Shown here piece by piece: positions 1,500 to 18,376 of a stretch of 64,000 nucleotides of DNA. The notes under the pieces were generated by a model, which saw nothing but the letters and a program-made list of their open reading frames with translations, was not told the origin of the DNA and ran no database searches. This DNA comes from an uncultured Gammaproteobacteria bacterium. GTDB taxonomy: Bacteria > Patescibacteriota > Microgenomatia > UBA8517. The first letter of the stretch is position 1, and each line of letters opens with the position of its first letter. The stretch is taken from positions 3,816 to 67,815 of the forward strand of contig CAZRGC010000003.1 in assembly GCA_964599625.1 (NCBI GenBank), given 5' to 3'. A program made the translations under genes and the position numbers.

Positions 1500-3185
1500 T
1501 TACAATTTTTCTATATTGTACAAACTCGATTTTATACCAATGTACCCGGGGGCCCTAAGGTTAAAGGCTTCTTTGAACTTTGCTCCAGTGTAGTTCACGG
1601 AACCCTTGTTTGTTTGAAATGTCACCGACTGTGTAGACCCATCGTTTGAATAGACAACCGATACACCACTAACACTTGTAAATCCTCCTATCCCTGCAAG
1701 TTCAGCCTGGCTATAAGGGTTTCCTCCCCAACATGTCCCTACAGGCGAAACTCTTCCAACATCACCACCGTTACCATCCAAAACAAATCTTGCATTGAGT
1801 ATATCGGCCATTTCTTCTGATTTAAGCCAAGGACTACTTCTTCCACAAGAGACCCCACCCCTAGACTTATACCACCCTTTGTAAAACCAGGGTGACCCCG
1901 AGATTTTTTCGTAAGCCGTGTCTGGCCAAGAACCGGACGCATCTTTTATACCGGTCCAGCCCCACTGAGTGATAGTGTATCCACCTGTGCTTGCAGAAAA
2001 ATATGTTGTGGCAGCACTCCCACCCTTCGTCATCACCCAACCCCTTGTTGCTTTAACAGCTTCTTTCCATTTACCGCTTTTAAGTTGCGGTTTATATACC
2101 TGACACGACTCGGACGTACAAATAGGTTTCGATCCATTGTTGGTGTATGAAAGCGCATAGCTTCTGGCAGCAACAGCTTGGGCTTTCAATGCCTCAAAAC
2201 CGCCGGAATCACCCCAACTTTCGGGAACTTCGTAGATACCCAATAAATAATTGTCTTCGAATGAAATGCTGCCATATCCTGTTACTGTAATATTTGCAGG
2301 TTCCGAATAGTTCTTGTTTAAAGACGCGCCTTGATAGTATGCAGAGAGTATTGTTTCGGCAGATTGTCCCGACTTACTTCTTCCATAAGCACCGTACTGG
2401 CTCATTCCGGTCCTATGGGGAGCCCCAAACGAAAACGCAGCAAAAGCTGGCCTAAAACCTGGGTCACAAAAAGCAGAGGACCCTTGAGGACCACTGCATG
2501 GCTCAAGAGTTGGAGGTGTATCACCTATTGAAGTCTGAAATCCACCCGCCTTTGCAGCGGCCAGTTCGTTCTGTTTAGAAGAAAGTGTTGAAAGGTAACT
2601 GTCTACCTTGGCGACCTCCCCTGCCAAAAATTTCTGTTTTTCAGAAACCTGAGACTGCAACGAAGAAAGACTCGCTTTGTTTTTAACCAAGCTATCTTTG
2701 TCGTTTTTCAGAGAAATCAGATCGTTTCCGTATTTTTCCAACGTTTCTCTGTCACTATCTGCGGCTTTTTGTCTGAAACTGATCTCTCTAAACGCTACTG
2801 CCGCGTTATCGGAAAAAACAAACGGAGTGATAGGATCATAAAGGCGCAAGAATGTGTAATGGTTTCTGGCTTTTTCCTGGAATATCTCTTTTGTATAAGC
2901 CAAGTCTTCTTCTCTGCCGGTTATTTGGCTTTCAAGTTTTTTAAGGTCTGATGTGAGTTTTGAAATTTTGAAGTTAAGATCAGACAACTGCTTGTTTAGA
3001 CCTGCCAAATCTTTTTTATTTTTCTCCTGGGCCGGGGAAAGTGAATCAATTTCGTTTTGAATTTGCTTTATCTGACAATCATAGTCTGTTGAGGGACACT
3101 CCTGCGCCAAAACAACTGCAAATTTGATCCCAAAAAAGACAAGTAGTACCAAGGAAAATGAAGTAAAAATTTTAGCCTTAAACAT
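1500..3185 (-). CDS. Secreted coiled-coil protein with a C-terminal SpoIID/LytB domain (peptidoglycan remodelling)
   Basis: N-terminal signal/TM segment, then a long heptad-like region (LKKLESQITGREEDL...). The MSQYGAYG motif and surrounding sequence match the SpoIID/LytB family. Confidence 0.65.
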   Translation of the reverse strand: MFKAKIFTSFSLVLLVFFGIKFAVVLAQECPSTDYDCQIKQIQNEIDSLSPAQEKNKKDLAGLNKQLSDLNFKISKLTSDLKKLESQITGREEDLAYTKEIFQEKARNHYTFLRLYDPITPFVFSDNAAVAFREISFRQKAADSDRETLEKYGNDLISLKNDKDSLVKNKASLSSLQSQVSEKQKFLAGEVAKVDSYLSTLSSKQNELAAAKAGGFQTSIGDTPPTLEPCSGPQGSSAFCDPGFRPAFAAFSFGAPHRTGMSQYGAYGRSKSGQSAETILSAYYQGASLNKNYSEPANITVTGYGSISFEDNYLLGIYEVPESWGDSGGFEALKAQAVAARSYALSYTNNGSKPICTSESCQVYKPQLKSGKWKEAVKATRGWVMTKGGSAATTYFSASTGGYTITQWGWTGIKDASGSWPDTAYEKISGSPWFYKGWYKSRGGVSCGRSSPWLKSEEMADILNARFVLDGNGGDVGRVSPVGTCWGGNPYSQAELAGIGGFTSVSGVSVVYSNDGSTQSVTFQTNKGSVNYTGAKFKEAFNLRAPGYIGIKSSLYNIEKL

Positions 3186-3310
3186 TATTCAAATTATCAT
3201 TATATATTCATATCACAACAATGTCAGTTTCCAGGCTTTGTTTTTGGTGCAGTCTATTACCACACCTGTTTCCTGGCGTTTGCAGACAATATGCTCTAAA
3301 ATACAGGGTA

Positions 3311-3718
3311 ATGAAATACAAATTACTATTGGCAACTGTAGCCTTCACATTTTCTTTCATGTTCAAACTGGTAGTACCTACTACAGCCCTAGCTGTTAGC
3401 CAGGATGTTACCTGCAACGGAAATCAAGGTGTCGATACAGCAATCGGATGTTTGAACGTTCTGTCCACTCCCGAAGACTTTTTGGGGCAGCTTTTGGGTT
3501 GGGCTGTGGGAATTGGTGGAGGCCTTGCGTTTATCTTGATTGTATATGCAGGATTTATGATCATGACGGCCGCAGGAAATCCGGAAAGACTCAAGGCTGG
3601 TCAGGAGCTTTTGACTTCGGCAATTTCTGGTCTTATTCTTTTGATCTTCTCAATTTTTGTACTCAGATTCATTGGAATTGATATACTGGGACTTAACAAC
3701 TTTGGTTTTGGCGGATAA
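3311..3718 (+). CDS. T4SS pilin-like protein (VirB2/TrbC-like), paralog 1
   Basis: Start re-set to the ATG at 3311, preceded by AGGG. Signal peptide MKYKLLLATVAFTFSF...ALA, then two hydrophobic helices flanking GNPERLKAGQELLTSAISGL. This architecture is shared with 7 downstream paralogs. Confidence 0.6.
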   Translation: MKYKLLLATVAFTFSFMFKLVVPTTALAVSQDVTCNGNQGVDTAIGCLNVLSTPEDFLGQLLGWAVGIGGGLAFILIVYAGFMIMTAAGNPERLKAGQELLTSAISGLILLIFSIFVLRFIGIDILGLNNFGFGG

Positions 3719-3720
3719 AT

Positions 3721-4035
3721 ATGGCAGCACTAAATCTTGATTCAATTGAAAGCAGGGGTCTTGGCACATCCGTTCCCGGAACTCCCGGAGATATAATCAA
3801 TGCAATCCTTCCGTATGTATTTGCTTTTGCGGGAATTGGGCTTTTGGTGTTTTTAATGATTGGAGGGCTTCAAATGATGACGGCCAAGGGTGATCCCAAA
3901 GCAATAGAAGGTGCACAAGCAAAAATAACAAGCGCCCTTATTGGCTTTTTGATTATCATAATTTCATATGTTCTAGTCCAGCTGTTGACTAAAGTGCTTG
4001 GCCTTGGTTCTCTGGGAGGTGTTTTTGGTCCATAA
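3721..4035 (+). CDS. T4SS pilin-like protein, paralog 2
   Basis: 104 aa with a TM-loop-TM architecture and the loop motif KGDPKAIEGAQAKITSALIGF. Confidence 0.6.
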   Translation: MAALNLDSIESRGLGTSVPGTPGDIINAILPYVFAFAGIGLLVFLMIGGLQMMTAKGDPKAIEGAQAKITSALIGFLIIIISYVLVQLLTKVLGLGSLGGVFGP

Positions 4036-4039
4036 CAAT

Positions 4040-4363
4040 ATGAAAATTGATCAACTTTTTCTTGACGGGGTTCCCTCTAAAGCTACATATAGTAGTCTGA
4101 CTGGCATTTCCGGTCTGGTTACACTTTTTGTTAATATCATTTTTGCAATTGCTGGAATTGTCCTTTTGGTCTACTTTGTTGGCGGAGGTTTGGCCATGAT
4201 CAGCAGCGCCGGCAAAAACGATCCCCAAAAAGCAGAACAGGCAAAAAAAACATTAACAAGCGCCGTTATTGGTTTTGTTATAGTTTTTGTCTCCTATTGG
4301 GTAGTCTCACTTATTGGACAAATAATGGGTATCCAAATACTCCAAGGTCTTTTTGCTAGGTAA
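4040..4363 (+). CDS. T4SS pilin-like protein, paralog 3
   Basis: Start re-set to the ATG at 4040 (MKIDQLF...), 4 nt after the previous stop. Loop motif AGKNDPQKAEQAKKTLTSAVIGF. Confidence 0.55.
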   Translation: MKIDQLFLDGVPSKATYSSLTGISGLVTLFVNIIFAIAGIVLLVYFVGGGLAMISSAGKNDPQKAEQAKKTLTSAVIGFVIVFVSYWVVSLIGQIMGIQILQGLFAR

Positions 4364-4412
4364 CAAGCCTCGGACTTGTATTTTTGTCTGTGCGGGTTGT
4401 AAAATTAGCAAA

Positions 4413-4742
4413 ATGCCGAATTTTGGACAAATCAGACCCCCTACTACAGCATTTTCCGGATCGGATGCGGGTACATCAATCGGAAGATTAATTCAGCTTG
4501 GCTTATCGCTTCTGATTGTTGGCGCAGGGCTTTACGCCCTATTCAACTTTGTGATTGCTGGTTATTCTTTTTTGTCCGCAGGTGACGATTCCAAAAAGAT
4601 TTCTGCGGCTTGGGCCATGATCTGGCAAACAGCTCTTGGATTAGCTGTTGCTGCGGGTGCCTTTGTAATTGCTGCTATATTTGGCAAACTCTTGTTCAAT
4701 GATTTTGGATTCCTGTTGAACCCACAAATACCCAACTTATGA
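4413..4742 (+). CDS. T4SS pilin-like protein, paralog 4 (divergent)
   Basis: Start re-set to the ATG at 4413 (MPNFGQ...). Two hydrophobic helices with the loop motif AGDDSKKISAAWAMIWQTALG. Confidence 0.5.
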   Translation: MPNFGQIRPPTTAFSGSDAGTSIGRLIQLGLSLLIVGAGLYALFNFVIAGYSFLSAGDDSKKISAAWAMIWQTALGLAVAAGAFVIAAIFGKLLFNDFGFLLNPQIPNL

Positions 4743-5113
4743 CGCCAGACAATCACATTGCAGTAAGCCTTGCCCCAGCAGGTGGGTTTAAGGGTCTTGG
4801 TACAAGCTCACTTGCTAATCCGGGCAACGATGCCATAAATATCTTTGCAAACTTTCTTTCTTCCGTTATTGGCCTCATGACAATCATTGCATTTATTTGG
4901 TTTACGTTCAGATTTATTACCTCGGCGATTCAGCTCATGTATGCCGGAGGAGACAAGCAACGCTATGAAACAGCAAGAGAGCAAATGAAATATGCAATTA
5001 TCGGAGTTGTGGTCGTTGTGGCTGCAATATTTATTATCAACCTGGTTGGAACATTCATAGGCATTCCAAATATATTGGATGTCGCGGGTATGTTTGAACT
5101 TATAACTCAATAA
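4739..5113 (+). CDS. T4SS pilin-like protein, paralog 5
   Basis: ATGA start/stop overlap with the upstream gene. Loop motif AGGDKQRYETAREQMKYAIIGV. Confidence 0.6.
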   Translation: MTPDNHIAVSLAPAGGFKGLGTSSLANPGNDAINIFANFLSSVIGLMTIIAFIWFTFRFITSAIQLMYAGGDKQRYETAREQMKYAIIGVVVVVAAIFIINLVGTFIGIPNILDVAGMFELITQ

Positions 5114-5461
5114 ATGAACAACTTAATAGCGGCAGCATCTGGAGTAATCGGAAACCCTGCTTTGGGGGCACTCGAAAACAACACTGGCGAAAGCTTTTTC
5201 CAAAAGGCTATCCCCGCTTTTGCCAGTATGGCATTTTTGATTGCCTCGATCATATTCTTTTTTATGATAATTACCGGATCGATCCAATGGATCTGGTCAA
5301 ACGGCGACAAGCAGGCTTTGGAGACTGCAAGAGCCAGAATAACCAACGCTCTGATAGGTATGGTGCTTTTGTTTGCCGTATTTGCATTAATCAAAGTAAT
5401 AGAGACATTCTTCCACATACATATTCTGACTCTTGACATAGCGGCATTGAGGATTCGATAA
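5114..5461 (+). CDS. T4SS pilin-like protein, paralog 6
   Basis: Loop motif SNGDKQALETARARITNALIGM. The C-terminal TFFHIHILTLD is nearly identical to paralog 7. Confidence 0.6.
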   Translation: MNNLIAAASGVIGNPALGALENNTGESFFQKAIPAFASMAFLIASIIFFFMIITGSIQWIWSNGDKQALETARARITNALIGMVLLFAVFALIKVIETFFHIHILTLDIAALRIR

Positions 5462-5468
5462 TATACAT

Positions 5469-5798
5469 ATGAACAATCTTTTGGCACAGATTAATTTACA
5501 ACCGGGCGAAGGAACCCAGTTTGCTCCTTTGGCCAAACTCACCATTCCTGGACTTATTTCTGCACTCATCAGACTCACAGTAGTTGTTGCAGCCATAGTA
5601 TTTTTCTTTATCTTGGTAATTGGTGGTATTAAATGGATTGCTTCAGGTGGAGACAAAGCTCAAACAGAATCAGCCAGAAACCAAATCACAGCCGCTTTAG
5701 TAGGACTCGTAATAGTTTTCGCAGCTTGGGCTATCGTTGCACTTATCAACACATTCTTCCACATCGATATATTCTCGCTCGTTATCCCCTCAGTCTAA
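5469..5798 (+). CDS. T4SS pilin-like protein, paralog 7
   Basis: Loop motif SGGDKAQTESARNQITAALVGL and C-terminal TFFHIDIFSLV, pointing to a recent duplication of paralog 6. Confidence 0.6.
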   Translation: MNNLLAQINLQPGEGTQFAPLAKLTIPGLISALIRLTVVVAAIVFFFILVIGGIKWIASGGDKAQTESARNQITAALVGLVIVFAAWAIVALINTFFHIDIFSLVIPSV

Positions 5799-5835
5799 TT
5801 TCTACTCAAAATAGTCTTGGTATAGCTTAAATTCT

Positions 5836-6144
5836 TTGTTTGTAATAAAATTATTGGGTATGAACGGAATTGCAACCATTGCCGACTTGGGAACAATTTT
5901 TTCTAATATTGTTAAGTCGTTTTTGACATTTGCAGGTATAGTGCTTTTTGTTTTTCTTTTGGTTGGTGGGTTCAGATATATTACTTCTGGGGGTGATCCA
6001 AAAGCAGTTGACGCAGCGCAAAAGACAATTACTTACGCAATTGGCGGCCTTGTTGTTATACTTCTTTCCTTCCTGGTTCTGGTGCTTATTGGGAACATAA
6101 CAGGTGTCACATCAATCACCGAATTCAACATCATGCTTAGATAA
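5836..6144 (+). CDS. T4SS pilin-like protein, paralog 8
   Basis: Loop motif SGGDPKAVDAAQKTITYAIGGL with a TM-loop-TM architecture. The start may be the internal ATG at 5860. Confidence 0.55.
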   Translation: MFVIKLLGMNGIATIADLGTIFSNIVKSFLTFAGIVLFVFLLVGGFRYITSGGDPKAVDAAQKTITYAIGGLVVILLSFLVLVLIGNITGVTSITEFNIMLR

Positions 6145-6156
6145 ACACAATGACAG

Positions 6157-8832
6157 ATGCAAAAATCAAGGCCAAAATGCCTCAATATTCATACAGCAAG
6201 TAAAGCTTTCTACTCTTTACTGGTCCTAGTTTTGGGTGTGTTTGTTGTGGCTGTAATGCTTCAAATAAAAACAGTTATGGCAGAGGATGCTATTCCAAGG
6301 CCAGGAAACGTTCCTTGTGAGACTGAAAAAAACCCAGAATACAGCAGCGGCCGACCTTATCAGGCTTCTCCTTGTGGGGATGCGCCCAAAACTTATTGGT
6401 GCGGTAATGCAGTTGTTATATATCTAAACACAGTTAAGTGTCCCTATAACGGCAGTCCCACTTGCACACCGACGGTAACACATTACGAAAAGAAAATAGC
6501 TGTCGAAATGCTTGATGCAGAACTCCCAATCATGGGAAACACCGAATTAACATCTAATAGCGTTAATGGCACGGGTACAATGGATGACGGAACCAAACTA
6601 AACGAATATATGAGCTGGTACCTTAACGGGGTAAACGACAAGGCCGAGTACCCCGAAAGCAGCATAGATCAATCAGTTAATATGTCCGGACCCTTAAGAA
6701 GGCTTTTACCCGGTGTGATACAAGACGCAGCAAGAGTAGAAATCATCAAATCCCCCGACGGAGACACATCAAACGTTGACGATGAGACCGGCGAATCCAC
6801 TCCAGAAAAAATGAATCACAACAATATTGTGGTTTGTGCAAAAGAAGGTGGTGGTGGTCTTCTTGGTTGGATAGTGGATCTTTTTAATGTAGGGGCAACT
6901 ACTCCGCTTGAATGCTACAAGGGGGGCGGGTCGGGAGCACAAGGTGACGTTTATAGATTGAAGGACTGGAACGGCAATTTGACAATACTTAACGCTTTGT
7001 CGAATACAGTAGTACGCACAGCAGTAAACGCCTACCAAGTTTTGTTTCCGTTTGCCTCACTGGGTGAGATAGAAGCATCCATTGGAAACCATTGGAATCT
7101 CAGACGCCCTCCCCTTCCCTGGGACGACGGTACCGGTAAACCATTCGCAAGAAACGTTGACTATCAAAAAGCATACTACGAGTGGCGGGGGCAAACCTGT
7201 ATGATTATTCCGGTTATTGATAGACTTGCCTGTTTCGAAAACCTTCTAGTTCCAAATAAATATGCAGATTTGTTCCCATATATTCCTCTTGCAAACACCA
7301 GAGATATACCCGGAGCACACACTGTCCTTCTTGCTCATGTAAGTGCGGCAAAAGCAGAAATATTGGAGTCTGATTACCAAATAATCAAGCCGGCTTTTCG
7401 CTTGTGGATTCCACACGCGGCTGAAAATTTTGAACTCACAAGTCTTCTTAAAAAGACTTTTGTTCCCAAAGCTAAAGACGGTGCTAGCTCTACAGCCCCA
7501 GCAGCAAGCCTGAGCGATGTCGAAATAAACAACGCGCCATGCAAGATATTAAATTCGAGAAGTAATCCGGGCGACGATGTAAACTTTGAAAATCCAAAAA
7601 AATGGATTGAGGTGGATGTGCAATACGATGTTGGAGAAATTCAATGTAGTGAGCCGCATGAAGAGTGCAAGGAAGACACAAATCCCAGTAGCCCCACTTA
7701 CGGACAAACTATTTGCAAAATGGTCGCAACCTGTGAGTCAGAAGTTTATGCAACAATACCCACGGTAGGCAAGACTCCATACGCAGATGAGATTTGGAAT
7801 AACTCCGTGGCAGGCCCGGACTCCGTGTTTAGAAGAATTTACCCCAAAACAGGTGCCAACGCCCCTGTTTCGTGTATTGCCGACCTTCCGGCCGAATCCA
7901 AAGCAACATATAAAATCACAGATCCAAGCAGCGAAGGGATCAGACTTACACAAGTAATTCTTCCTGATGATAGCCGCATGGGATCGTTTGCCAACAAGAC
8001 GGAGTCTTTGGAAGCAAAAGTGTTTTATCCCCATTACGGAGGTGTATTGGAATACTTTTTAAACGGTATCCAAACAGCGCTTAGACCCCAAGGTTATAGC
8101 GATTCGCAACCAATGAGTGGTCAATCATGCAGCAACATTCAATGTGGCGAGCTTCCCGATCTTCCCAAAGCATCGGGTTCTTGCCAACTTGGCGGTGTCA
8201 GTTCCCGTGTGGGTAAAATTCCAAAAGCTTTAAGCGACATAATTTCTGCTGCCGCACAAACATACAAAGTCCCCCCCAACCTATTAATCGGGCAGATGTT
8301 TGGTGAAGGACTTTTTAATCCGGGAAGATACGAGTGGACCGAGGAAAATGTTAAAAACTGGGCAACGTGTACAAAAATTCCGGGATGTAATGAGACAGGA
8401 GATGATCACTTTATGGGATTCAACGGAACAGTTTTTGAACGAACAGTCCCTAAAATAAAAGCAGATTTACAAAAAATCGATCCCAGCAGGAAAACATTCA
8501 GTCAGTGTAATCTTCTGGATGCAATTTATGCTGCCGCTTATAATCTTCACGACAGTGCTGACGGCGGAGGCGGGCTTCCCGCGACATGTTTCGGAATAAA
8601 ACTTAGTGCACCAGTACCATCATCCTGCTCCTGGACTGATGAACAATACGAATCAGCAATCAAAGTTTACGAGAGTGGTTATACAAGTATGTGTATGACG
8701 GTTGAAAACGGTTGTGCAATAGGAGGCTTGGCAGCTGCCTGCCCAGCAGGCGATACCTGCGAAACAATAAGCAATAGATATTCAAGTCCAAGCCACAACG
8801 CCTGTGTTTGGGACGTGGCACACGGCAACTAA
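6157..8832 (+). CDS. Large Cys-rich secreted/membrane-anchored protein with a C-terminal lytic-transglycosylase (SLT family 1)-like domain; putative VirB1 analogue
   Basis: N-terminal signal-anchor helix. More than 40 Cys. The C-terminal region reads AAQTYKVPPNLLIGQMFGEGLFNP ... HFMGFNG ... AAAYNLHD, which parallels SLT motifs I-III (E-S/GxxNP, GLMQ, AYNxG). Confidence 0.5.
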   Translation: MQKSRPKCLNIHTASKAFYSLLVLVLGVFVVAVMLQIKTVMAEDAIPRPGNVPCETEKNPEYSSGRPYQASPCGDAPKTYWCGNAVVIYLNTVKCPYNGSPTCTPTVTHYEKKIAVEMLDAELPIMGNTELTSNSVNGTGTMDDGTKLNEYMSWYLNGVNDKAEYPESSIDQSVNMSGPLRRLLPGVIQDAARVEIIKSPDGDTSNVDDETGESTPEKMNHNNIVVCAKEGGGGLLGWIVDLFNVGATTPLECYKGGGSGAQGDVYRLKDWNGNLTILNALSNTVVRTAVNAYQVLFPFASLGEIEASIGNHWNLRRPPLPWDDGTGKPFARNVDYQKAYYEWRGQTCMIIPVIDRLACFENLLVPNKYADLFPYIPLANTRDIPGAHTVLLAHVSAAKAEILESDYQIIKPAFRLWIPHAAENFELTSLLKKTFVPKAKDGASSTAPAASLSDVEINNAPCKILNSRSNPGDDVNFENPKKWIEVDVQYDVGEIQCSEPHEECKEDTNPSSPTYGQTICKMVATCESEVYATIPTVGKTPYADEIWNNSVAGPDSVFRRIYPKTGANAPVSCIADLPAESKATYKITDPSSEGIRLTQVILPDDSRMGSFANKTESLEAKVFYPHYGGVLEYFLNGIQTALRPQGYSDSQPMSGQSCSNIQCGELPDLPKASGSCQLGGVSSRVGKIPKALSDIISAAAQTYKVPPNLLIGQMFGEGLFNPGRYEWTEENVKNWATCTKIPGCNETGDDHFMGFNGTVFERTVPKIKADLQKIDPSRKTFSQCNLLDAIYAAAYNLHDSADGGGGLPATCFGIKLSAPVPSSCSWTDEQYESAIKVYESGYTSMCMTVENGCAIGGLAAACPAGDTCETISNRYSSPSHNACVWDVAHGN

Positions 8833-8876: not shown

Positions 8877-10676
8877 ATGCCTTTCTTTCATAAAACTCAC
8901 ATGTTTTTCAAAAAGTTTTTAGTTTCGTTTATGGCTGCCTGGATACTCGTTTTGTCCGTTGCGCCTTTTTCAATAGCAGCAGCTGCCACAGCCACCCCAG
9001 CCCCAACAGGAACATGGTATAACTCAAGTTTTCAGGATTGGTATTCCAAAGTCTACGACGACAGCAATCAAAGCGAAATTTTTGGCGAAAGATATACAGC
9101 CGCACAAGTACAGTGGGTTGTTTACGGACTTCTATCGTTCCTTGTAAACCAGACCAGCAACCAAAAACTTCTTAGTTGTTTGTTCAAGAATTCAGCAAAC
9201 CTGAACGCATGCGCAAGCTTACTTACCTATTCAGAAAAAGATCTTCAAGAACTCGCAAACAGACCCAAAGTAAAAGAGCCATCACTTGCCAGTCTTGTTT
9301 TTTCCAAAGAAAGGTCTTTTTCCGGAATTAACTATGTAAGGGAAAAGGTAGATAATTTTAGTCTTGTCCCCGAAGCTCATGCCCAAACAGTTGGTTTTGG
9401 CTTTAACGCCCTTAAGCCTGTTCAGGCAATGTGGCAAACTTCAAGAGACTTGGCATTTGGACTTTTTGTTTTGGCTGCGATCGTTTTTGCATTCATGATC
9501 ATGTTTAGAGTAAAAATATCTCCACAGGTGGTAATTTCGGTTCAAACGGCTCTTCCCAAGCTTATAGGTGCGTTGATATTGGTTACCTTCTCCTACGCCA
9601 TTGCAGGGTTTTTGGTTGATTTAATGTATGTAGTTTACGGATTGGTGGCGCTTTTGGGTAAAGGCTTTATTCCCTTTGGTGGCGCTGGTGTTTCTCCCGC
9701 AACAGTTTTTGAATTTATGACAGCAGGAAGAGTTGGTGGAGCAGGTGCAGGAATTGAATTAGGGCTCATGGGGCTTTTGTTTATATATCTTGTACTCCTC
9801 CCCATTTCGTTTGTAATAACACTGTTTTTGACGATTGGTGTTTTGGGAGCAGCTGTAATTGGACTTGTTGGAACAATTTTGGCACCTCTTTTTGCAGGCC
9901 TGGGAACAATAATGGCCTTGGTTGCAATTGTTTTGGTAATCATTTTGATCATAGTAATTATTTGGCAATTGGTAAAAATCATTTTCGGACTCCTTAAGGC
10001 ATACACAAACATTATTCTTTTGACAATTTTCGCGCCTGTGCAAATAGTTGCGGGTGTTTTTATTCCAAGTCTTGGTTTTGGTTCTTGGCTTAGAAGTTAT
10101 GTAACCAACTTGGGAATATTTGTATTAACAAGTGTTCTTATATTTTTCTCTTTTGTATTTTTGGAGCAAGGAGTGGCCCTCGCATGGGAAGGACTTGGTA
10201 GCAACATCGGCGCAGGGATACTTTCGTTTATTTTTGGTCAATCAACAATCGCAAATCTTGGAGGTTTCTTTGTAAACAATTCTGCATGGCCACCCCTTTT
10301 GAGTTCCACGGCCTCCACAGGCGGCGGCACAGGTCTTTTGATGCTTGGTGTTAGCTTTGTACTCTTTACGCTAATTCCTAAAGCCACAGAGGTGTTGCAA
10401 GGCCTTATGAGTGGCAGACCGTTTGCATACGGAACCGCAATCGGTGAGGCTTTTGGGCCGGTTGCACCATTTGCTGAGTATGGGAAGGGTGCTGCAATGA
10501 GAGCTGCCATCAGAAAGGGTGTTCAGATGGACAACGAAGGCAGATTGCCAAGCGGTGGTATGTGGACATATTTGAAAGAGGGTCTAAGAGATGCCGCAGA
10601 GCAACAAAGAATGTCTACTGTAAGAGGAAGAGACACAGACAATACTTCCGTCAGACCTCCAAGCGAGAGAAGATAA
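8877..10676 (+). CDS. Polytopic inner-membrane protein (at least 8 TM), VirB6/TrbL-like candidate
   Basis: 599 aa with a signal-like N-terminus, many long hydrophobic helices with Gly-rich packing, and a C-terminal charged tail. It sits between the lytic enzyme and the ATPase genes, the usual VirB6 position. Confidence 0.4.
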   Translation: MPFFHKTHMFFKKFLVSFMAAWILVLSVAPFSIAAAATATPAPTGTWYNSSFQDWYSKVYDDSNQSEIFGERYTAAQVQWVVYGLLSFLVNQTSNQKLLSCLFKNSANLNACASLLTYSEKDLQELANRPKVKEPSLASLVFSKERSFSGINYVREKVDNFSLVPEAHAQTVGFGFNALKPVQAMWQTSRDLAFGLFVLAAIVFAFMIMFRVKISPQVVISVQTALPKLIGALILVTFSYAIAGFLVDLMYVVYGLVALLGKGFIPFGGAGVSPATVFEFMTAGRVGGAGAGIELGLMGLLFIYLVLLPISFVITLFLTIGVLGAAVIGLVGTILAPLFAGLGTIMALVAIVLVIILIIVIIWQLVKIIFGLLKAYTNIILLTIFAPVQIVAGVFIPSLGFGSWLRSYVTNLGIFVLTSVLIFFSFVFLEQGVALAWEGLGSNIGAGILSFIFGQSTIANLGGFFVNNSAWPPLLSSTASTGGGTGLLMLGVSFVLFTLIPKATEVLQGLMSGRPFAYGTAIGEAFGPVAPFAEYGKGAAMRAAIRKGVQMDNEGRLPSGGMWTYLKEGLRDAAEQQRMSTVRGRDTDNTSVRPPSERR

Positions 10677-10743: not shown

Positions 10744-13700
10744 TTAAAAATTCTTCTTTACGTTGGTTATCGCCGCTGACACAGATTCCTGCTGATCTGT
10801 ACCATGCTTAATTACAGACCTAACAATTCTTTCACCTTGCATTACTGTGAGCAAGGCAACTTGAGCTGATGTGCCAGGATAATTGTGAACCTTCCTTACT
10901 TTTGTTGGCATGTCCAAAAGAACATTGATCCATTTGGTAACATCTTGCCTTTGGAAACTAGCAAACAACTTGTCAATTTCTGTTTCAGTTGGAGTTTTAC
11001 CCATGAGTCCAGCGCTTTTAATTGCTGCCAACATCTTGTTTTGTGCAAACGAAGATGCACGCAGCACGCCGTCTGACCAATTAAAAATTCTTCCACCAAG
11101 CCTACCTCTTTTACCCAACTCTTTATCAGCTGTTCCGGAAGGCTCGCCCAAGAAGTGTTTTTCGTACTCGGGTTGTGTAGATCTGTTGAATTCGTGTGGT
11201 GTAACAATTGGACCAAGCCATCTTTCCATTTGGTCATGAGAGACTCTAATGTAGCTGTATTTGTATCTGTCCATATTCTCCCAATTTAGCTTTGAATTTC
11301 TCTCTCCACGGAGCCTTCTGTGCCAAACACTCACGCTTCTACCGTCCACAGTTCTGGCTGATGGAGAATCCAAAGTCATACTTCTCCAAAAACCAAGAGG
11401 TAACGAGGTCGGCATGAACATAGGCATTGTCAAATAGTCACTCTTGGGATTTCCGGGTTCTGCCAAGAATGGTGTCATGTAAGACCACATGTTGTTGTAA
11501 ATAAAATCGCGGACTCTTGTGTCAAATTTTCCATAATATTGCTCTTGGATACCATTTTTTCCTTTCATATACACTTTTCTAGCTACCATCTTCTCTAAAG
11601 GATTGTCATCAGACAGGATCCCTCCACGTGCTGTAATTTTTCCATCTAGACCGATGCCCAACCTCCTCAAAAGATCAGGGTCGTTCTTTGCTATTACCTC
11701 AACTTTTGGCCTCCAATAAGGTGGTTGCTCGAGCCATTTGTCCCTATATTCACCTATTGTTGGAAACACCAAAACACCAGAGCCCCTGGTTTCTGCCATT
11801 ATGTCGTAGTCGATCATGTGTCTTGCCAGATAAACAACCGTTGTTACATCATGATTTTCATAGATACTCCCCATCTCCGATCTCCTTTTTACTCCAAGTT
11901 CGGCAGCAGTTTTACCCTCTCCTGTAATCTCTTTCCATTCACCTTCACTTACATTCTTTTTGTAAACTCGCTGCTCAACATACTCATCGCCATTTGAGAG
12001 ATCGACAACTACTTTGAAATTGGGGTTTGAAGCCAACGCCCTCCAAACAACTTCATCTGTTTTCTTTTTGTAAGTTTTTCCGCCACCCAGAATCACATAC
12101 TCTTCACCGGTTCCTGTTTCTGTAAGAATTGGTTTCTTTTTAACCTCTTCGTAATTCCAAGTCCAACCGAGATCTCCACCGGAAAGAACACCTTTTTCAA
12201 TATTTATTGTGCTTTTTATAACTTGTTCAGCAAGTCTTGCATATGGCGATTCTGTGTCGTCTAAGGCTTCCCATTGTTCTGATCTCTGAGCAGCTCTATC
12301 TTTTAGCTCGCCAGCCAAAGCTTTAATTCTTGCAAGTCTTACAGCAGGATTTCCTACAGCCATAATTTCCTCCATTTTTTGCTCATAATATGCAGCATTT
12401 AGAACCAGTTGCTGCATTCTTGATTCAAAAGCTCTTATAGCCAACTCGTCGTTACGGGGCATACAAAACGGATTTAATATTTTCTCTTTTACAGTAATCA
12501 TTGTTCCGTCCGCAGCTTTGTATTGGAATTCACCAACTTCACTCACTGTACCGTCAGCATTAACTGTTTCCATCGCCATGACTTCCTGTAAAAACATAAA
12601 TGTTTCAATGTTTTCTACTACCGCATACCTCTCACCCTCTTCTTTGTCTGCGTCGTTTTCGGTCCAACTACCACCATCGAGAAGATCCAAATTCTTCTGT
12701 CCCACAGCAACGGCTTTATATAGCCATTTTATTGACGCATCTTGTTGTTCAACTGCAACCTCTCGCATACCAAGTCTTTCTACTGGATTACCATTCTCAT
12801 CTCTTGATTGTCTGAGGAGTCTGTCAGGCCTTTTTGAAAGTGTCTTTTTGACAAGTTCGCGCTGTTCATCCGTAAGATCAGCCCCCCTAAGTTTGTCTTT
12901 ATAAAGCCTAATAAAATCTTGAGCCACAAGTTCTGTGTGCGGGCTTCTTATCCACTGAAGCATGAGTTCTCCGTCAAAGTACAGTTCAAAAGCTGGCCCC
13001 ATTCCTTCTACAACCCTGGCGTTGGCATTTGCCCACAACATATCTCTTTTGAGCATCTTAAGAAGTGCTGTGGTTTCAGGATTTTTTGCTCGATCGGTGT
13101 TTCTGAGCTTGTCAGTAACCTGTTCCAAAGCTTGTTCAAAATACTGCATCGCATACCTGGAGTCGTATGGGTATGGGTTTTTGAGATGCTCAAGATATCT
13201 GTTTAATCCTCCCAACTCGTCCATGGTTGTCTGGATGATGTTTTCGTAAGCCTCAGCTGCTCTTTCTCTTGCTCCTTCGAGCCTCTTTTCTCTCTCGTTC
13301 GGTTCCTCAATCAAATAATCTGCAACCTCGGCAGCAAATTTATCCCCACTTTCGACAGCGTCCCAATCATCTCCACCCTTGGAACCCTTGATCATAACCT
13401 TTTCGTTTTTAGCTTTTTTGTCATCAACTGCTTTTCTTAGTTCTTCTTGTTCGGTTTTGAGAGTGTCTCTCGCATCCTGAAGGCTAGGGCTTGCCTCAAC
13501 TTCAACCCAATCAGTACTCTGTTCAATCTTGTTCCTTAAAAGTCTTACTTTAAATATCATTTGATCCAAGTCTCTGGTGTCGTTTTCAATAAGCCCAATC
13601 TGCTCGGCTGCCATAAGGAATTTGGGCATATATGAATATTTTCCTTCCTCGTTCCTCCTCGCCAATCTCATTTCATGCTCCATTCTCTCTTTGTTGGGGT

Positions 13701-13941
13701 CTTTATCATCCTCTTTTCCATGCTGCATTCTTATATCGGGAAGGTTTGCTTTCATCATTGGCTGAGACTCGGCAAAATTCCTGGCTGCATCGACTTGAGA
13801 TTTACCCAAAGCAACAGCATTGCTGTCGATAGACGAAATTTGATTAGCCGCAAAGTCTTTGGCCTGGGTACCCCCCAGATTCATCATTGCCCTAACTGAG
13901 GGTGATATGTTTGGATCGTTTGGAACAGATTCTCTTGTCAT
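10744..13941 (-). CDS. Large (1065 aa) soluble hypothetical protein, no recognisable domain
   Basis: Long uninterrupted ORF with no signal peptide or TM helix and charged/acidic-rich composition. It is divergent to the T4SS operon and convergent with the VirB6-like gene. Confidence 0.5.
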   Translation of the reverse strand: MTRESVPNDPNISPSVRAMMNLGGTQAKDFAANQISSIDSNAVALGKSQVDAARNFAESQPMMKANLPDIRMQHGKEDDKDPNKERMEHEMRLARRNEEGKYSYMPKFLMAAEQIGLIENDTRDLDQMIFKVRLLRNKIEQSTDWVEVEASPSLQDARDTLKTEQEELRKAVDDKKAKNEKVMIKGSKGGDDWDAVESGDKFAAEVADYLIEEPNEREKRLEGARERAAEAYENIIQTTMDELGGLNRYLEHLKNPYPYDSRYAMQYFEQALEQVTDKLRNTDRAKNPETTALLKMLKRDMLWANANARVVEGMGPAFELYFDGELMLQWIRSPHTELVAQDFIRLYKDKLRGADLTDEQRELVKKTLSKRPDRLLRQSRDENGNPVERLGMREVAVEQQDASIKWLYKAVAVGQKNLDLLDGGSWTENDADKEEGERYAVVENIETFMFLQEVMAMETVNADGTVSEVGEFQYKAADGTMITVKEKILNPFCMPRNDELAIRAFESRMQQLVLNAAYYEQKMEEIMAVGNPAVRLARIKALAGELKDRAAQRSEQWEALDDTESPYARLAEQVIKSTINIEKGVLSGGDLGWTWNYEEVKKKPILTETGTGEEYVILGGGKTYKKKTDEVVWRALASNPNFKVVVDLSNGDEYVEQRVYKKNVSEGEWKEITGEGKTAAELGVKRRSEMGSIYENHDVTTVVYLARHMIDYDIMAETRGSGVLVFPTIGEYRDKWLEQPPYWRPKVEVIAKNDPDLLRRLGIGLDGKITARGGILSDDNPLEKMVARKVYMKGKNGIQEQYYGKFDTRVRDFIYNNMWSYMTPFLAEPGNPKSDYLTMPMFMPTSLPLGFWRSMTLDSPSARTVDGRSVSVWHRRLRGERNSKLNWENMDRYKYSYIRVSHDQMERWLGPIVTPHEFNRSTQPEYEKHFLGEPSGTADKELGKRGRLGGRIFNWSDGVLRASSFAQNKMLAAIKSAGLMGKTPTETEIDKLFASFQRQDVTKWINVLLDMPTKVRKVHNYPGTSAQVALLTVMQGERIVRSVIKHGTDQQESVSAAITNVKKNF

Positions 13942-14484: not shown

Positions 14485-15618
14485 ATGGAACAACATCCAA
14501 TTCCACAACAAATAAGTTCCTATCAATTCCGTTTGGTGGGAGATATGACCCTCAAACAGTTTTTCCAACTTGCGGGTGGATTTTTGGTGGCACTTATTTT
14601 TTATTCTTCCCCACTTATTGGAATTATCAAATGGCCTTTTGTAATTGTATCCGCACTTCTTGGTGTCGGTCTTGCTTTTTTGCCTTTGGAAGAAAGGCCG
14701 TTGGAAAAATGGATTTTTGCTTTTTTCAAAGCAATATATGCACCAACCGAATTTTACTGGGAAGAAACAAAAACACCTGTTAAATTTTTTATGGATGAGC
14801 CCGCAAGCAGTGTGAATGCAAACACAGCAGCTCCACAAGAAAAAGCCTTGCAAGACTATCTTTCTGTTGCAAATCAAAGAACTGGCTCATCTGCAAAAAT
14901 GGAAATGGCTGAACAGGGATTTTTAGCAACGCTTACCGGAATATTTACAGGAGTGGTTTCGCCTGTAACAACTGGCATACCTCCAGCACCCGCACAGTCA
15001 GCGGCTCCAACCCCGGCAGTCACACCCTTAACCATGCCAAAAGAACCCATTAGCGCACCACAGGCACCCGTTGAACAAAAAGAAATACAAATACCCCAGA
15101 CTGCTCCTATAAAAGTTGTCTCCAATATACCTCATTTGGTAATCGAAGAAAGAAAAGCGGATCCACTAGCACCAGAACCACAAATAACAACACACCAAGT
15201 TGCACCAACTATGGCGGGTGAGGAAATGATTTCCACCAAACAAGCTTTGTTCTCAATCGACGCTGCCCCACCAAGCCCTCCAACAATTCCAAACGTTGTT
15301 GTTGGACAAGTGGTAGATGAAAATAGAAGAATAGTCGAAGGTGCGATTATGGAAATACGAGACTCTGGCGGCAGACCAATACGAGCACTAAGAAGTAACA
15401 AGGCTGGTCATTTTATAACCGTTACTCCACTTGAGATAGGTAAATACGACGTTTTAACAGAAAAAGATGGCTTCGATTTTACAGCAATATCTTTTGAAGC
15501 AACGGGAAACTTGATTCCTCCAATCCTTGTTCAAGGCAAACATAGTACTCAGCAGCCTGCGCAGGTTACCCAGGCTCCACCAATAGTTTCTGCAAACCCT
15601 GTAGCAACGACTAACTAA
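14485..15618 (+). CDS. PrgI/VirB3-like membrane protein fused to a Pro-rich linker and a C-terminal beta-sandwich (CarboxypepD_reg-like) domain
   Basis: N-terminal YQFRLVGDMTLKQFFQLAGGFLVALIF plus a second TM helix resembles PrgI-family (VirB3 analogue) proteins that precede VirB4. Middle region is PA/PQ-rich. C-terminal VVGQVVDENRRIVEGAIMEIRDSGGRPI...GHFITVT...GKYDV follows the transthyretin-like fold pattern. Confidence 0.45.
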   Translation: MEQHPIPQQISSYQFRLVGDMTLKQFFQLAGGFLVALIFYSSPLIGIIKWPFVIVSALLGVGLAFLPLEERPLEKWIFAFFKAIYAPTEFYWEETKTPVKFFMDEPASSVNANTAAPQEKALQDYLSVANQRTGSSAKMEMAEQGFLATLTGIFTGVVSPVTTGIPPAPAQSAAPTPAVTPLTMPKEPISAPQAPVEQKEIQIPQTAPIKVVSNIPHLVIEERKADPLAPEPQITTHQVAPTMAGEEMISTKQALFSIDAAPPSPPTIPNVVVGQVVDENRRIVEGAIMEIRDSGGRPIRALRSNKAGHFITVTPLEIGKYDVLTEKDGFDFTAISFEATGNLIPPILVQGKHSTQQPAQVTQAPPIVSANPVATTN

Positions 15619-15624
15619 CCAACT

Positions 15625-16332
15625 ATGGCATTAAACCCACCAAACTTATCAAAACTTCCCAAAATTCCATACCTTTCCATTCCGGATAAACCTATTACTG
15701 CAACCAGCCAAGACCATGTACCAATTGCAGACATTACAAATGATATTTTAATTTACAAAGACGGAGGCGCCGCACTTGTGATGGAGTCAACATCTCTCAA
15801 TTTCGGACTTTTAAGCGAAAAGGAGCAACAGGCCGTAATCGCAGCATATGCAGCAATGATTAATTCGCTTTCTTTCTCTGTTCAGATTGTTGTAAGAACA
15901 TCCAGAAAGGACATAAGCTCTTATTTGTCATTTTTGGATGAACAAGCCAAAAAACTTACACACCCCCTCTTGGTGAGGCTTATGGCCAACTACAGAGGTT
16001 TTATTACCGAGTCTGTTAAGAAGAAGAACGTTCTTGGGAAAAGATTTTTTGTGATTTTGTATCTTTCGCCATTAGAACTGGGGGTCGGCAAATCAGTACA
16101 AACACTTACTAAACGTGGCGGGCCACTTCCCTACACAAAATCTTATGTTATTAAAAAAGCTAAGATTACTTTGTATCCCAGGCGGGATCACTTGGTTCGC
16201 CAGGCAGGGCGTCTTGGTATAAAATTCAGGCAACTTACAACACCGGAGCTTGTCAATCTTTTTTATACTATCTACAACCCCGAAAGACCCGCAGTTAAAA
16301 AAGAACCCGAGGTTGTAATGGACAAAAAATAA
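15625..16332 (+). CDS. VirB4-family protein, N-terminal segment (split gene or frameshift)
   Basis: ADITNDILIYKDGGAALVMESTSLNFGLLSEKEQQAVIAAYAAMINSLSFSVQIVV matches the conserved N-terminal VirB4/TraC/PrgJ motif (D.I..KDG....LEV...NF.L.S..EQ). It ends at a poly-A tract 4 nt before the next ORF, which is in a different frame. Confidence 0.5.
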   Translation: MALNPPNLSKLPKIPYLSIPDKPITATSQDHVPIADITNDILIYKDGGAALVMESTSLNFGLLSEKEQQAVIAAYAAMINSLSFSVQIVVRTSRKDISSYLSFLDEQAKKLTHPLLVRLMANYRGFITESVKKKNVLGKRFFVILYLSPLELGVGKSVQTLTKRGGPLPYTKSYVIKKAKITLYPRRDHLVRQAGRLGIKFRQLTTPELVNLFYTIYNPERPAVKKEPEVVMDKK

Positions 16333-16336
16333 AAAA

Positions 16337-18376
16337 ATGAATATCAAACTACCATTCATGAAACAGCAGAATCCGGTACCAGCCTCTGCTTTGGGTGTTG
16401 ACCCTATGCAAAACACTCAACCACCAATGGTGCTACAAACACCACCCACAATCGTTCCACCTACTACAAACCCTCCCGTCGCGCCACAAACACCAACAAC
16501 TCCTCCACCTACAAATCCATCGTTACAAAACCCACAAACCTCATTTGCACCGACACCTGTGCAACAAACACCTCCAAACACACAAGTTCAACCAACCCCT
16601 ACTGCCGTAAAGACTGCTAAACAAAAATATACAAACCCGGGTTTGGCTGTAACCCAAGGAGCAAATGTGTTGGATGTTATTGCTCCGCAATTGGTTGAGG
16701 AGGACTTTGATTACATAAAAATAAACGATGTTTATTTTCGAACCATATTTGTTGGTGGCTATCCCAGATTTGTCGCCCCGGGTTGGCTTGAGCCTGTAGT
16801 TAATTTTGATTCAAGCCTTGATATTTCTTTTTATGTTTATCCGGTAGATGGAAAATCTGTTCTGGACGATCTAAGGAGAAAGATCGCAGAAATGGAAGCA
16901 GAAATATCAACAGACATCGAACGCGGAAAAATAGTTGATCCTTCTACCTCAGCCAAATTGGAAGATGCCAGAGCTCTTCAGGAACAACTTGTTAAAGGAA
17001 TAGAACGTTTTTACGAATTTTCTTTTTACATAACAATTCCGGCAAATACTGTCGATGAACTAAACCATGTTACAAAACAAATTGAATCACAGTTGGGATC
17101 GCTTTTGATTGTTTCCAAACACGCTCTTTTAGACCAAGAGTCAGGATTTTTGTCTACCGCACCCTTTGGAATGGACAGATTAAACATCACAAGGAATATG
17201 GATACGACTTCTGTAGCAACAACCTTCCCTCTTACCTCTACAGAACTTTCCAGCGACCGCGGAGTTTTGTACGGTATAAATTCTCAAAACGAGTCCTTCA
17301 TTATTTTTGACAGATTTAGTCTCCAAAACAGTAACATGGTTATCTTTGCAACCTCAGGTGCCGGAAAGTCATTTTTTGTTAAGTTGGAGGCTTTAAGATC
17401 TTTGATGACAGGAACCGAAGCAATAATTCTTGATCCTGAAAACGAATACAAACCACTCGCACAAGCGGTTGGTGGTGAATATATTTCTTTCTCCTATAAC
17501 TCCGATGCCAAAATCAATCCTTTTGATCTGGCCCAGATACGTGAAGAGGGCGAGAACCAGCTTGGGTTGAAAATTTTATCCTTACATTCACTTATGAAAG
17601 TTATCATGGGACAAATATCTCCCACCCAGGACGCACTTTTGGACAGAGCACTTGTTATGACCTACAGAAACAAAGGAATCACCATGGACCCTGATACCCA
17701 AGGAAAAGAACCCCCTCTTATGGAAGATCTATACAAAACCCTTATTGGAATGGAGGTTCCAGATGCACTTGATTTAGCAGCACGTATCGAGAAATTTGTA
17801 AGAGGAAGTTTTGTGGGAATTTTTGATAAACAAACCAACATCAATCTAAACAATCCTTTTACTGTTTTCTCAGTTAAAGACATGCAAGATGCAATACGCC
17901 CGATTGCAATGTTTATCATCCTTGATTACATTTGGACTCGCGTCAAAAAGGACATTAAAAAACGAGTCCTTTTAGTGGATGAGGCTTGGCACATGATGAG
18001 ATATCCCGACACCGCTCAATTCTTGTGGAGCGTTGTCAAAAGAGCACGTAAATATTATCTTGGGCTTACAACAATCACCCAAGACGTAGAGGACTTCTTG
18101 GCACAAGACATAGGCAAGGCAATTGTCACCAACAGCTCCATGCAGGTGCTTCTGAAACAATCACCTGCTGCAATTGATAAAATCGGGGAGGTGTTTTATT
18201 TGAGTCAGGGAGAAAAACAGCTCCTTCTTGCAGCCAATGTCGGAGAGGGAATATTCTTTGCAGGACCACACCATGCCCCAATAAGAGTGGTTGCCTCGGA
18301 AGAAGAAAATAGATTGATAACAACCAAGCCAGAAGAGGTTGCTAAATTTAACCCAGCCGCGTATAACACCAAATAA
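16337..18376 (+). CDS. virB4: VirB4/TraC/PrgJ-family T4SS ATPase (middle and ATPase domains) with an N-terminal Pro/Thr-rich linker
   Basis: YFRTIFVGGYPRFVAPGWLEPVV (conserved VirB4 N-domain motif), Walker A IFATSGAGKSFFV, Walker B RVLLVDEAWHMM, and a downstream TTITQDVEDF motif. Confidence 0.8.
   Translation: MNIKLPFMKQQNPVPASALGVDPMQNTQPPMVLQTPPTIVPPTTNPPVAPQTPTTPPPTNPSLQNPQTSFAPTPVQQTPPNTQVQPTPTAVKTAKQKYTNPGLAVTQGANVLDVIAPQLVEEDFDYIKINDVYFRTIFVGGYPRFVAPGWLEPVVNFDSSLDISFYVYPVDGKSVLDDLRRKIAEMEAEISTDIERGKIVDPSTSAKLEDARALQEQLVKGIERFYEFSFYITIPANTVDELNHVTKQIESQLGSLLIVSKHALLDQESGFLSTAPFGMDRLNITRNMDTTSVATTFPLTSTELSSDRGVLYGINSQNESFIIFDRFSLQNSNMVIFATSGAGKSFFVKLEALRSLMTGTEAIILDPENEYKPLAQAVGGEYISFSYNSDAKINPFDLAQIREEGENQLGLKILSLHSLMKVIMGQISPTQDALLDRALVMTYRNKGITMDPDTQGKEPPLMEDLYKTLIGMEVPDALDLAARIEKFVRGSFVGIFDKQTNINLNNPFTVFSVKDMQDAIRPIAMFIILDYIWTRVKKDIKKRVLLVDEAWHMMRYPDTAQFLWSVVKRARKYYLGLTTITQDVEDFLAQDIGKAIVTNSSMQVLLKQSPAAIDKIGEVFYLSQGEKQLLLAANVGEGIFFAGPHHAPIRVVASEEENRLITTKPEEVAKFNPAAYNTK

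Follow-up and report, generated by a model that had tools for sequence, protein, structure and literature searches.

This report concerns a candidate wall-cutting enzyme encoded in a type IV secretion system (T4SS) locus, on a 64,000-nucleotide stretch of Microgenomatia DNA that we call the window (GCA_964599625.1, contig CAZRGC010000003.1, positions 3,816-67,815, forward strand). The gene (6157..8832, + strand, in coordinates of the window, as below) is the sole open reading frame (ORF) at this place in the ORF listing and encodes a secreted or surface protein of 891 amino acids; tblastn found no second paralogue within the window. A homologue search recovered at least 171 related Patescibacteria proteins (Microgenomatia/Woesebacteria), all labelled hypothetical and none annotated, the closest named ones being from Candidatus Woesebacteria, Microgenomates group. 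The only hydrophobic stretch of the chain is at residues ~17-43 (6205..6285, +; the sole Kyte-Doolittle window above 1.6), so the protein is predicted to be exported or anchored by its N terminus: the segment would be a Sec signal peptide or membrane anchor, leaving the remainder of the chain extracytoplasmic, and a possible signal cleavage site lies between VMA and ED. Cys makes up 3.25% of the protein (29 residues) and 0.58% of 19 further large ORFs in the window (binomial p ~2e-13). The protein is probably stabilised by disulfides. A preliminary description, made from the DNA letters, had noted this Cys-richness and placed it in the N-terminal part; the richness is real and the emphasis has to be reversed, as the C-terminal tail holds 13 Cys in 241 residues (5.4%) against 16 (2.5%) in the N-terminal 650.

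Directly upstream of the gene lies an array of eight tandem small ORFs (3221..6144, +). Six have significant matches to the Pfam family T4SS_pilin (PF18895), one (5114-5461) stays below threshold (E 3.5e-4) and one (4353-4742) has no Pfam match; the first ORF of the array, of 165 amino acids, is extended at length on its N-terminal side and contains 5 Cys. Arrays of 2-11 VirB2 pilin genes are described in Microgenomatia (PMC12102498), and that of the window agrees. On the other side, after a gap of 45 bp, comes a polytopic membrane protein of 599 amino acids (8877..10676, +), conserved in synteny and VirB6-like by position only. Within the locus there follows an ORF of 1065 amino acids on the opposite strand (10744-13941, -), which has a single Cys and matches no family and no PDB entry. 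The T4SS genes proper then continue with a PrgI/VirB3-like gene (14485-15618, +), a TrsD/TraD-like gene of 235 amino acids (15625-16332, +; TrsD/TraD family, 5e-7), a VirB4-type ATPase (16337-18376, +; P-loop_TraG, 2e-29) and, directly after it, an ORF of 942 amino acids (18379-21207, +). As the preliminary description implied, the gene is thus encoded within a T4SS locus, with pilin array, PrgI, TrsD-like protein and VirB4 all present in the window. Since dnaN and dnaA (21852-24625, -) adjoin it, the cluster is origin-proximal, an arrangement described for Patescibacteria and noted for Microgenomatia (PMC12102498).

The gene order is shared with loci of four other genomes, L001 to L004, and of a fifth, L007. 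Divergent from the pilin array and adjoining it is a gene for a SpoIID-domain protein (1500-3185, -; PF08486, 2.7e-14) with an N-terminal coiled-coil-like stretch, kept in the window and in four of these loci (L001 5321-7141; L002 5359-7077; L003 3093-4871; L004 3197-4975, by synteny). SpoIID is itself known as a lytic transglycosylase, and a second enzyme that cuts the wall may therefore be encoded here. L001 to L004 have in common the order SpoIID (-), pilin array, the gene studied here, a polytopic protein of ~560-590 amino acids and a large gene on the minus strand; the latter encodes 639-836 amino acids in L001-L003 and L007, and the L004 contig stops earlier. L001 and L002 continue with PrgI, a TraC/TrsD-like ORF of ~225 amino acids and VirB4, and L002 also with an ORF of ~900 amino acids after VirB4. 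Counterparts of the 235-residue ORF give weak TraC-like matches in L001 and L007 and no Pfam match in L002; the ORF of the window also matches a VirB4 model of mycoplasma in its N-terminal part (9e-6) and looks like a split-off N-terminal VirB4 domain. The order of genes found in the window thus recurs in L001-L004 and in L007, where a shorter protein stands in place of ours.

Beyond its hydrophobic segment, the protein divides into four parts: a conserved module of mixed alpha/beta structure (residues 44-644; 6286..8088, +); a linker with a Cys-containing lead-in, including the invariant C676 (residues 645-681; 8089..8199, +); a divergent domain related to SLT and lysozyme (residues ~682-850; 8200..8706, +); and a Cys-rich C-terminal extension ending in CPAGDTCETISNRYSSPSHNACVWDVAHGN (residues 851-891; 8707..8829, +). 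The last three make up the tail. In relatives the tail comes in several sequence types, of which that of the window protein is called A and a related one A2. The preliminary description had recognised a lytic-transglycosylase-like motif set in three strings, YKVPPNLLIGQMFGEGLFNP (residues 703-722; 8263-8322), HFMGFNG (residues 751-757; 8407-8427, +, 34 residues past E717) and AAAYNLHD (residues 792-799; 8530-8553), and the ORF translation contains all three within 8200-8600. Their correspondence to SLT motifs turned out to be uneven.

E717, the Glu of FGEGLFNP and predicted general acid (codon 8305..8307, +), is the strongest of these correspondences. It is invariant in all aligned homologues: 69 of 69 type A/A2 proteins, a 24-sequence alignment of the wider family and 69 distant members whose architectures differ. 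It immediately follows a helix in the AlphaFold2 (AF2) model of the tail (helix 63-72, Glu at tail residue 73, by DSSP), as expected of the catalytic Glu of motif I. The place given to motif I is therefore correct, and its Glu is conserved beyond what chance would give. The classical pair is Glu-Ser; the residue after the Glu is Gly here, and Ser in 2 of 24 sequences of subfamily A/A2. HFMGFNG likewise stands in the place of motif II, the supposed GLMQ, without its hallmark: the positional equivalent reads F-M-G-F, and the Gln is missing from all 24 aligned A/A2 sequences, being kept as GPWQF or TFQW in 5 of 24 wider-family sequences. Because the replacement affects every A/A2 member, the protein fails the defining feature of motif II. 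The third equation, AAAYNLHD with AYNxG, has to be abandoned, as AYN (794-796) varies among orthologues and its helix pairs with the DPxNPxDAIxAAARYL helix upstream of AYNxG; in bona fide SLT proteins the motif takes the form AYNHADWY, after an NPxDA...YL helix. What is conserved around AAAYNLHD is C784-N785-x-x-D788, at a helix start (C784-N785-L-L-D788; 8506..8520, +), the counterpart of the SLT N-P-x-D-A helix, with C, N and D invariant. A699, P706, C784, N785, D788, A794, C824 and W826 are the other residues invariant family-wide in the 24-sequence wider alignment, and A/A2 tails have seven invariant Cys.

Is this tail a genuine member of the lysozyme-like superfamily? The link goes through intermediate sequences. 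We searched a tail-only profile against 1.84 billion representatives (50% identity clusters) and obtained 292 representative clusters at E<=1e-3. Many of these proteins are ~600 residues or shorter, and in many just the ~165-residue core aligns with the tail profile; matches of distant members stop at ~180-190 of the profile. Over 69 distant members, SLT_2 was the sole Pfam family matched. Five of them scanned singly (E 1e-19 to 1e-30 against the tail profile) all matched SLT-clan models exclusively, with scores just short of threshold (SLT_2 7.8e-5, 22.5 bits where 24.3 are required; SLT 9.5e-4; SLT_4 1e-3), and four of the five have the canonical motif II SxxGAxGPWQF, the fifth, P0216, reading GARGTFQW. 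One of these members, P0250 (E 1.5e-20 to the tail profile), was compared by phmmer with 5.8 billion proteins and retrieved nine (E 7e-6 to 4e-4), all previously annotated as SLT_2 and 8 of 9 also as SLT; five of these were confirmed (SLT_2 6e-16 to 7e-17; SLT 1e-10).

Profile-profile alignment closes the link. Against the nine SLT proteins, hhalign gave a probability of 97.3% (E 2.6e-11) with the wider-family alignment and 92.0% (E 6.6e-7) with an alignment of A/A2 sequences only, which contains no bridging sequences; both span ~90 columns. E717, in GEG, falls on the catalytic Glu of INKIET (paired as IET) and FMGF on WMQF. In both comparisons CNLLDAIYAAAYNL is paired with YNPVDAICAAARYL, and DPSRKTFSQCNLLDAIYAAAYNL with DGRKDPYNPVDAICAAARYL. 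Between the Glu and motif II, ~16-18 residues have no SLT counterpart; we read this insertion as a predicted extra helix holding the conserved Cys744. Homology to SLT proteins was thus found both by intermediate sequences and between profiles. MltC was the only lytic enzyme in three profile searches of the PDB, each time aligned at its motif I, ESSFNP, and never significantly (E 1.9 with the full-length type-A profile, 1.3 with a C/D-type profile, 0.87 and 1.3 with a broad profile, where it ranked behind a spurious Nmd2 match). These matches at E ~1-2 are suggestive only; in the alignment (diveaAaetYkvPpnlilgvmygEglfn), E717 would be in register with the Glu of TESSFNP.

The AF2 model of the tail, built on a 69-row alignment, is mostly helical and of high confidence (predicted local distance difference test, pLDDT, 91.7; predicted template modelling score, pTM, 0.89), its initial 12 residues being predicted disordered (pLDDT <50). 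The preliminary description proposed superposing a model on the catalytic domains of Slt70 and MltE. In two structure libraries the best-ranked matches are lysozyme-like enzymes, none of them at statistical significance. Each of the nine best PDB fold matches is a peptidoglycan glycosidase from the lysozyme-like superfamily: Tse3, an antibacterial muramidase of the type VI secretion system (T6SS), comes first, SagB and MltF are also near the top, and phi6 lysin, MltE, FlgJ and SltB1 stand lower down. At the top of the BFVD matches were a GEWL-like protein, internal virion proteins of podoviruses, SLT-domain proteins, the PRD1 transglycosylase and the tail lysin of a Bacillus phage, the last aligned over 118 columns at 3.5 A with a probability of 0.90. 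From residue conservation, intermediate sequences, profile comparison and structure models taken together, we are confident that residues ~682-850 form a very divergent SLT domain, similar to glycoside hydrolase family 23 (GH23). The preliminary description had named two outcomes that would speak against its reading, no lysozyme-like fold predicted for residues ~680-800 or a Glu that varies among orthologues; both were checked, and neither was clearly obtained.

The extension that follows the domain is restricted to type A tails and is missing in type A2 and most distant members. Type A tails close with a conserved Cys/His-rich motif, C..GD.CE......SHNACVWDVAHGN (residues 851-891); a small knot held together by disulfides or by a metal would be one reading of it, a sorting element another.

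The N-terminal module had been described as having no recognisable fold. It has no detectable relative, with no match in Pfam, NCBIfam or PHROGs, and Foldseek against the PDB returned papillomavirus L1 at a TM of ~0.06, which is meaningless noise. It is nonetheless a real conserved domain and not a loose scaffold: over ~600 residues, dozens are invariant or nearly so, including 11 Cys and polar residues such as R66, K338, Y340, E342, D383, H420, N470 and D473, and it is more conserved than the tail. AF2 models residues 44-644 with high confidence (pLDDT 90.7, pTM 0.90) as a compact structure with several long beta-hairpins, and the module is probably functional. It ends in GIQTALRP (residues 637-644). 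In L007, which comes from another lineage, a 333-residue protein with little beyond the SLT-like domain fills the same slot, so that the putative glycosidase is the constant element of the locus and the 600-residue module a lineage-specific addition. One homologue, P0076 (1178 residues), has a NAGPA phosphodiester glycosidase domain (PF09992, 3.5e-25) preceding the conserved module, a further glycan-active add-on.

The tail, by contrast with the module, is exchanged between close relatives. At least six sequence types occur, type A in 59 of 120 proteins; the others include A2 (...HEG...), B (..WLNES..), C (ET...CGPAQI), D (EIES...GVAQI) and F. In P0105 the tail scores as a genuine lysozyme-like domain, Pfam SLT_3 (1.4e-11), and has the motifs ES and GLFQ. 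The type A family aligns by hhalign with C/D tails, which have ES and GxAQI, at 93.7%. In a comparison of single tail types from which the KGYGEP linker was trimmed, since its presence in several types inflates the scores, A against D gives 74.6% and A against B or F less than 1%. No link from type A to types B, F or SLT_3 was obtained with hhalign, and a type B profile found nothing in the PDB. On the tree of the N-terminal module the tail types are scattered: the nearest neighbour has a different type in 47 of 108 cases, and pairs with different tails reach 91%, 90%, 85%, 83% and 82% identity in the module (P0097/P0117 0.91; P0066/P0068 0.90; P0006/P0068 0.85; P0084/P0090 0.82).

The last of these pairs, P0084 (type A2) and P0090 (type B), occupies the same slot in two closely related contigs, those of L003 and L004. 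DNA identity between them is 93% in the flank, ranges from 74 to 85% along the pilins, stands at 79% over the N-terminal module, becomes undetectable from the domain junction across the tail and a small following gene, and returns at 72% in the polytopic gene. This is allelic cassette replacement with a sharp junction at GIQTALRP, and the locus shows what is seen in polymorphic effectors, alternative C-terminal domains on near-identical N-termini at one position. Such replacement is commonly met in polymorphic effectors and in determinants that are exposed and evolve fast; it agrees with diversifying selection and, possibly, with a host wall as the target. The small gene belongs to PF05635 (23S_rRNA_IVP, a four-helix-bundle, Avd-like family) and follows the tail in L001 (12819-13175), L003 (10617-10847) and L004 (10567-10932), being absent from that position in the window and in L002. 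Its copies are only ~36% identical among loci, even where the flanks are 93% identical, and it therefore lies within the hypervariable stretch. That it is immunity-like or accessory is pure speculation. A diversity-generating retroelement was considered and rejected: the gene lists of the loci with PF05635 contain no reverse transcriptase, and the window has no PF05635 gene.

We think it probable, though by no means assured, that the protein is a surface component of a Microgenomatia-type T4SS/pilus whose SLT-like glycosidase opens peptidoglycan. After Sec export, the disulfide-stabilised protein would be placed at the surface of the apparatus, where the N-terminal 600-residue module would hold the glycosidase in position, with the pilus, the wall or the polytopic membrane protein as its docking site. 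The last ~210 residues would be a highly divergent glycosidase of the SLT/goose-lysozyme (GH23) type, with E717 at the end of its helix as general acid, and would cut the MurNAc-GlcNAc bond of peptidoglycan, by lytic transglycosylase or by hydrolase chemistry and in the cell's own wall or a host's. The outcome would be a local breach in the wall for the apparatus, and because it would provide this breach the protein would be a functional counterpart of the wall hydrolases VirB1, PrgK and TraG.

Several results weigh against this reading. The search with SLT and lysozyme-clan hidden Markov models (HMMs) proposed in the preliminary description matched nothing on the protein itself: whole protein and tail have zero Pfam matches even at E<=10 and no significant NCBIfam or PHROGs match, phmmer of the protein against the PDB gave noise, and Foldseek of the tail model found no significant match in the PDB or BFVD. 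The loss of the motif II Gln and of AYNxG, with Glu-Gly for Glu-Ser, may leave room for a binding-only pseudo-enzyme or an altered mechanism. The SpoIID protein could itself serve the self-wall role, and swapping tails on near-identical N-terminal modules is unusual for a housekeeping assembly factor. The preliminary description had proposed a VirB1 equivalent; this role is read from context only, and tail replacement argues that purely housekeeping work on the cell's own wall is not the whole story.

What else could the protein be? A possibility to which we give less weight is that it is a host-directed polymorphic muramidase, the N-terminal module serving for delivery or attachment at the pilus tip or surface and the tail being a lysozyme-like warhead against host peptidoglycan; recombination might then exchange warheads to fit the wall chemistry of the host or evade its inhibitors. 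Speculatively, it would be a weapon presented by the T4SS/pilus of an epibiotic ultrasmall bacterium, and not a housekeeping VirB1, with interchangeable warheads on a module of unseen fold; in some genomes warheads might be swapped together with the PF05635 gene, in an arms race with hosts. The scatter of tail types on the N-terminal tree points this way, as do the unrelated tails of pairs 82-91% identical and the syntenic L003/L004 loci, where tail and next gene lose all detectable similarity between 93% flanks and next to a 79% module. The pilins of the same loci evolve fast too (74-85%), Tse3 is the best (non-significant) solved-structure match, the high Cys content is compatible with extracellular life, and the conserved SpoIID protein could take care of self-wall remodelling. 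This interpretation is weakened by the window, where no immunity-like gene follows and only a 45-bp gap separates the gene from that of the polytopic protein, and by the lack of any sign of release or translocation. Moreover, the tails for which a lysozyme-like link was found (A, A2, C, D, SLT_3) are all variants of one activity class, B and F not being linkable, and any exposed protein may diversify under pressure from phages or of an immune-like kind.

The same motif losses could mean a catalytically dead, lysozyme-like anchor binding peptidoglycan or another glycan, with enzymatic or adhesive activity in the N-terminal 600 residues. Motif II Gln and motif III are gone in all A/A2 members, Gly replaces Ser after the Glu, and the module, better conserved than the tail, has very many invariant polar residues. 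We hold this to be unlikely: a Glu invariant in every aligned homologue, across the subfamilies and architectures of a family of 292 representative clusters, is hard to explain without catalysis, and an ordinary SLT_3 domain, ES and GLFQ included, has been swapped in as the tail of P0105. That the resemblance is due to chance and the tail is an unrelated Cys-rich helical domain would agree with the lack of direct significant database matches, and the likeness to motif III is indeed coincidental; hhalign probabilities of 92-97% against verified SLT proteins, in alignments that keep the catalytic Glu in register, intermediate sequences that bridge the families, and two independent fold libraries that rank lysozyme-like enzymes first make it highly improbable.

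The 942-residue protein encoded after VirB4 begins with a charged, coiled-coil-like stretch, continues with a long hydrophobic middle rich in Gly and Ala, and ends in a Cys-containing part with the sequence HEVSHH and a weak match to neutral zinc metallopeptidases (NF050010, E 0.0016). In L007 the protein at the syntenic position (979 residues) carries a Peptidase_M23 domain. The 942-residue protein may thus work as a peptidase alongside the glycosidase. Monoderm T4SS hydrolases join glycosidase and peptidase activities in one chain (PMC12102498); given HEVSHH and the L007 domain, the wall-degrading pair may here be split between two proteins, ours and the 942-residue one.

Compared with family 1 lytic transglycosylases (SLT PF01464, SLT_2 PF13406; GH23; Slt70, MltC, MltE), the tail shares the helix ending in Glu with its preceding YxVP..LL.aim pattern, the position of motif II, the N-x-x-D-A...A..L helix and a predicted mostly alpha-helical fold. 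It differs in having Glu-Gly, neither the GLMQ Gln nor AYNxG, the ~16-18-residue insertion, the seven invariant Cys of A/A2 tails and the Cys-rich C-terminal extension, and in staying under every curated HMM threshold. With VirB1 and the monoderm hydrolases (PrgK of pCF10, TraG of pIP501, TcpG, CD419; PMC12102498) the protein shares a T4SS locus of the MPF-FATA-related monoderm type, a lysozyme-like glycosidase domain and export, the latter two predicted here from sequence. Unlike them it has no CHAP, NlpC/P60 or LytM partner domain on the chain, the candidate peptidase being on the separate ~940-residue protein after virB4; it also has a 600-residue module without fold match, a position at the end of a VirB2-like pilin array, and a replaceable tail. 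Polymorphic toxins (Rhs, CdiA and the T6SS muramidase effectors Tse3/Tge) resemble it in the conserved N-terminus, the sharp junction (here GIQTALRP), the alternative C-termini and, in the case of Tse3, the best though non-significant solved fold; they differ from it in that the window contains no cognate immunity gene and the protein no known delivery motif, and in that its assignable alternative tails are all lysozyme-like, not diverse toxins.

Loci of this type have been published before, and T4SS hydrolases with lysozyme-like domains are familiar as well. In most Patescibacteria classes, recognisable VirB1 homologues are rarely linked to virB4, and few VirB1-type matches lie near virB4 outside Paceibacteria (PMC12102498). 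The same 2025 survey found most Patescibacteria genomes with VirB2-like pilins to be without recognisable VirB1, and took the view that pilus biogenesis may not require VirB1 and that other glycosidases might substitute (PMC12102498). New here are a lysozyme-like family invisible to curated HMMs at a fixed position of the T4SS locus, in a class where VirB1 is mostly unlinked or missing, the fusion of its SLT-like domain to a large module without known relative, and the replacement of the tail between close relatives. This suggests that at least Microgenomatia-type loci contain a cryptic SLT-like glycosidase at a fixed place between pilin array and polytopic membrane protein. With the putative peptidase encoded after virB4 as its complement, both wall-degrading activities of monoderm hydrolases would be present. 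A lysozyme-like domain family that lacked annotation (292 clusters at 50% identity) is thereby defined, as is a 600-residue module, predicted with confidence and without solved relative, and strain-level tail replacement offers a testable handle on the interaction of epibionts with host cell walls.

Elsewhere in the window, a protein with VanW and PG_binding_4 domains (39038-40798, -) is cell-wall-associated and unrelated to the SLT-like gene.

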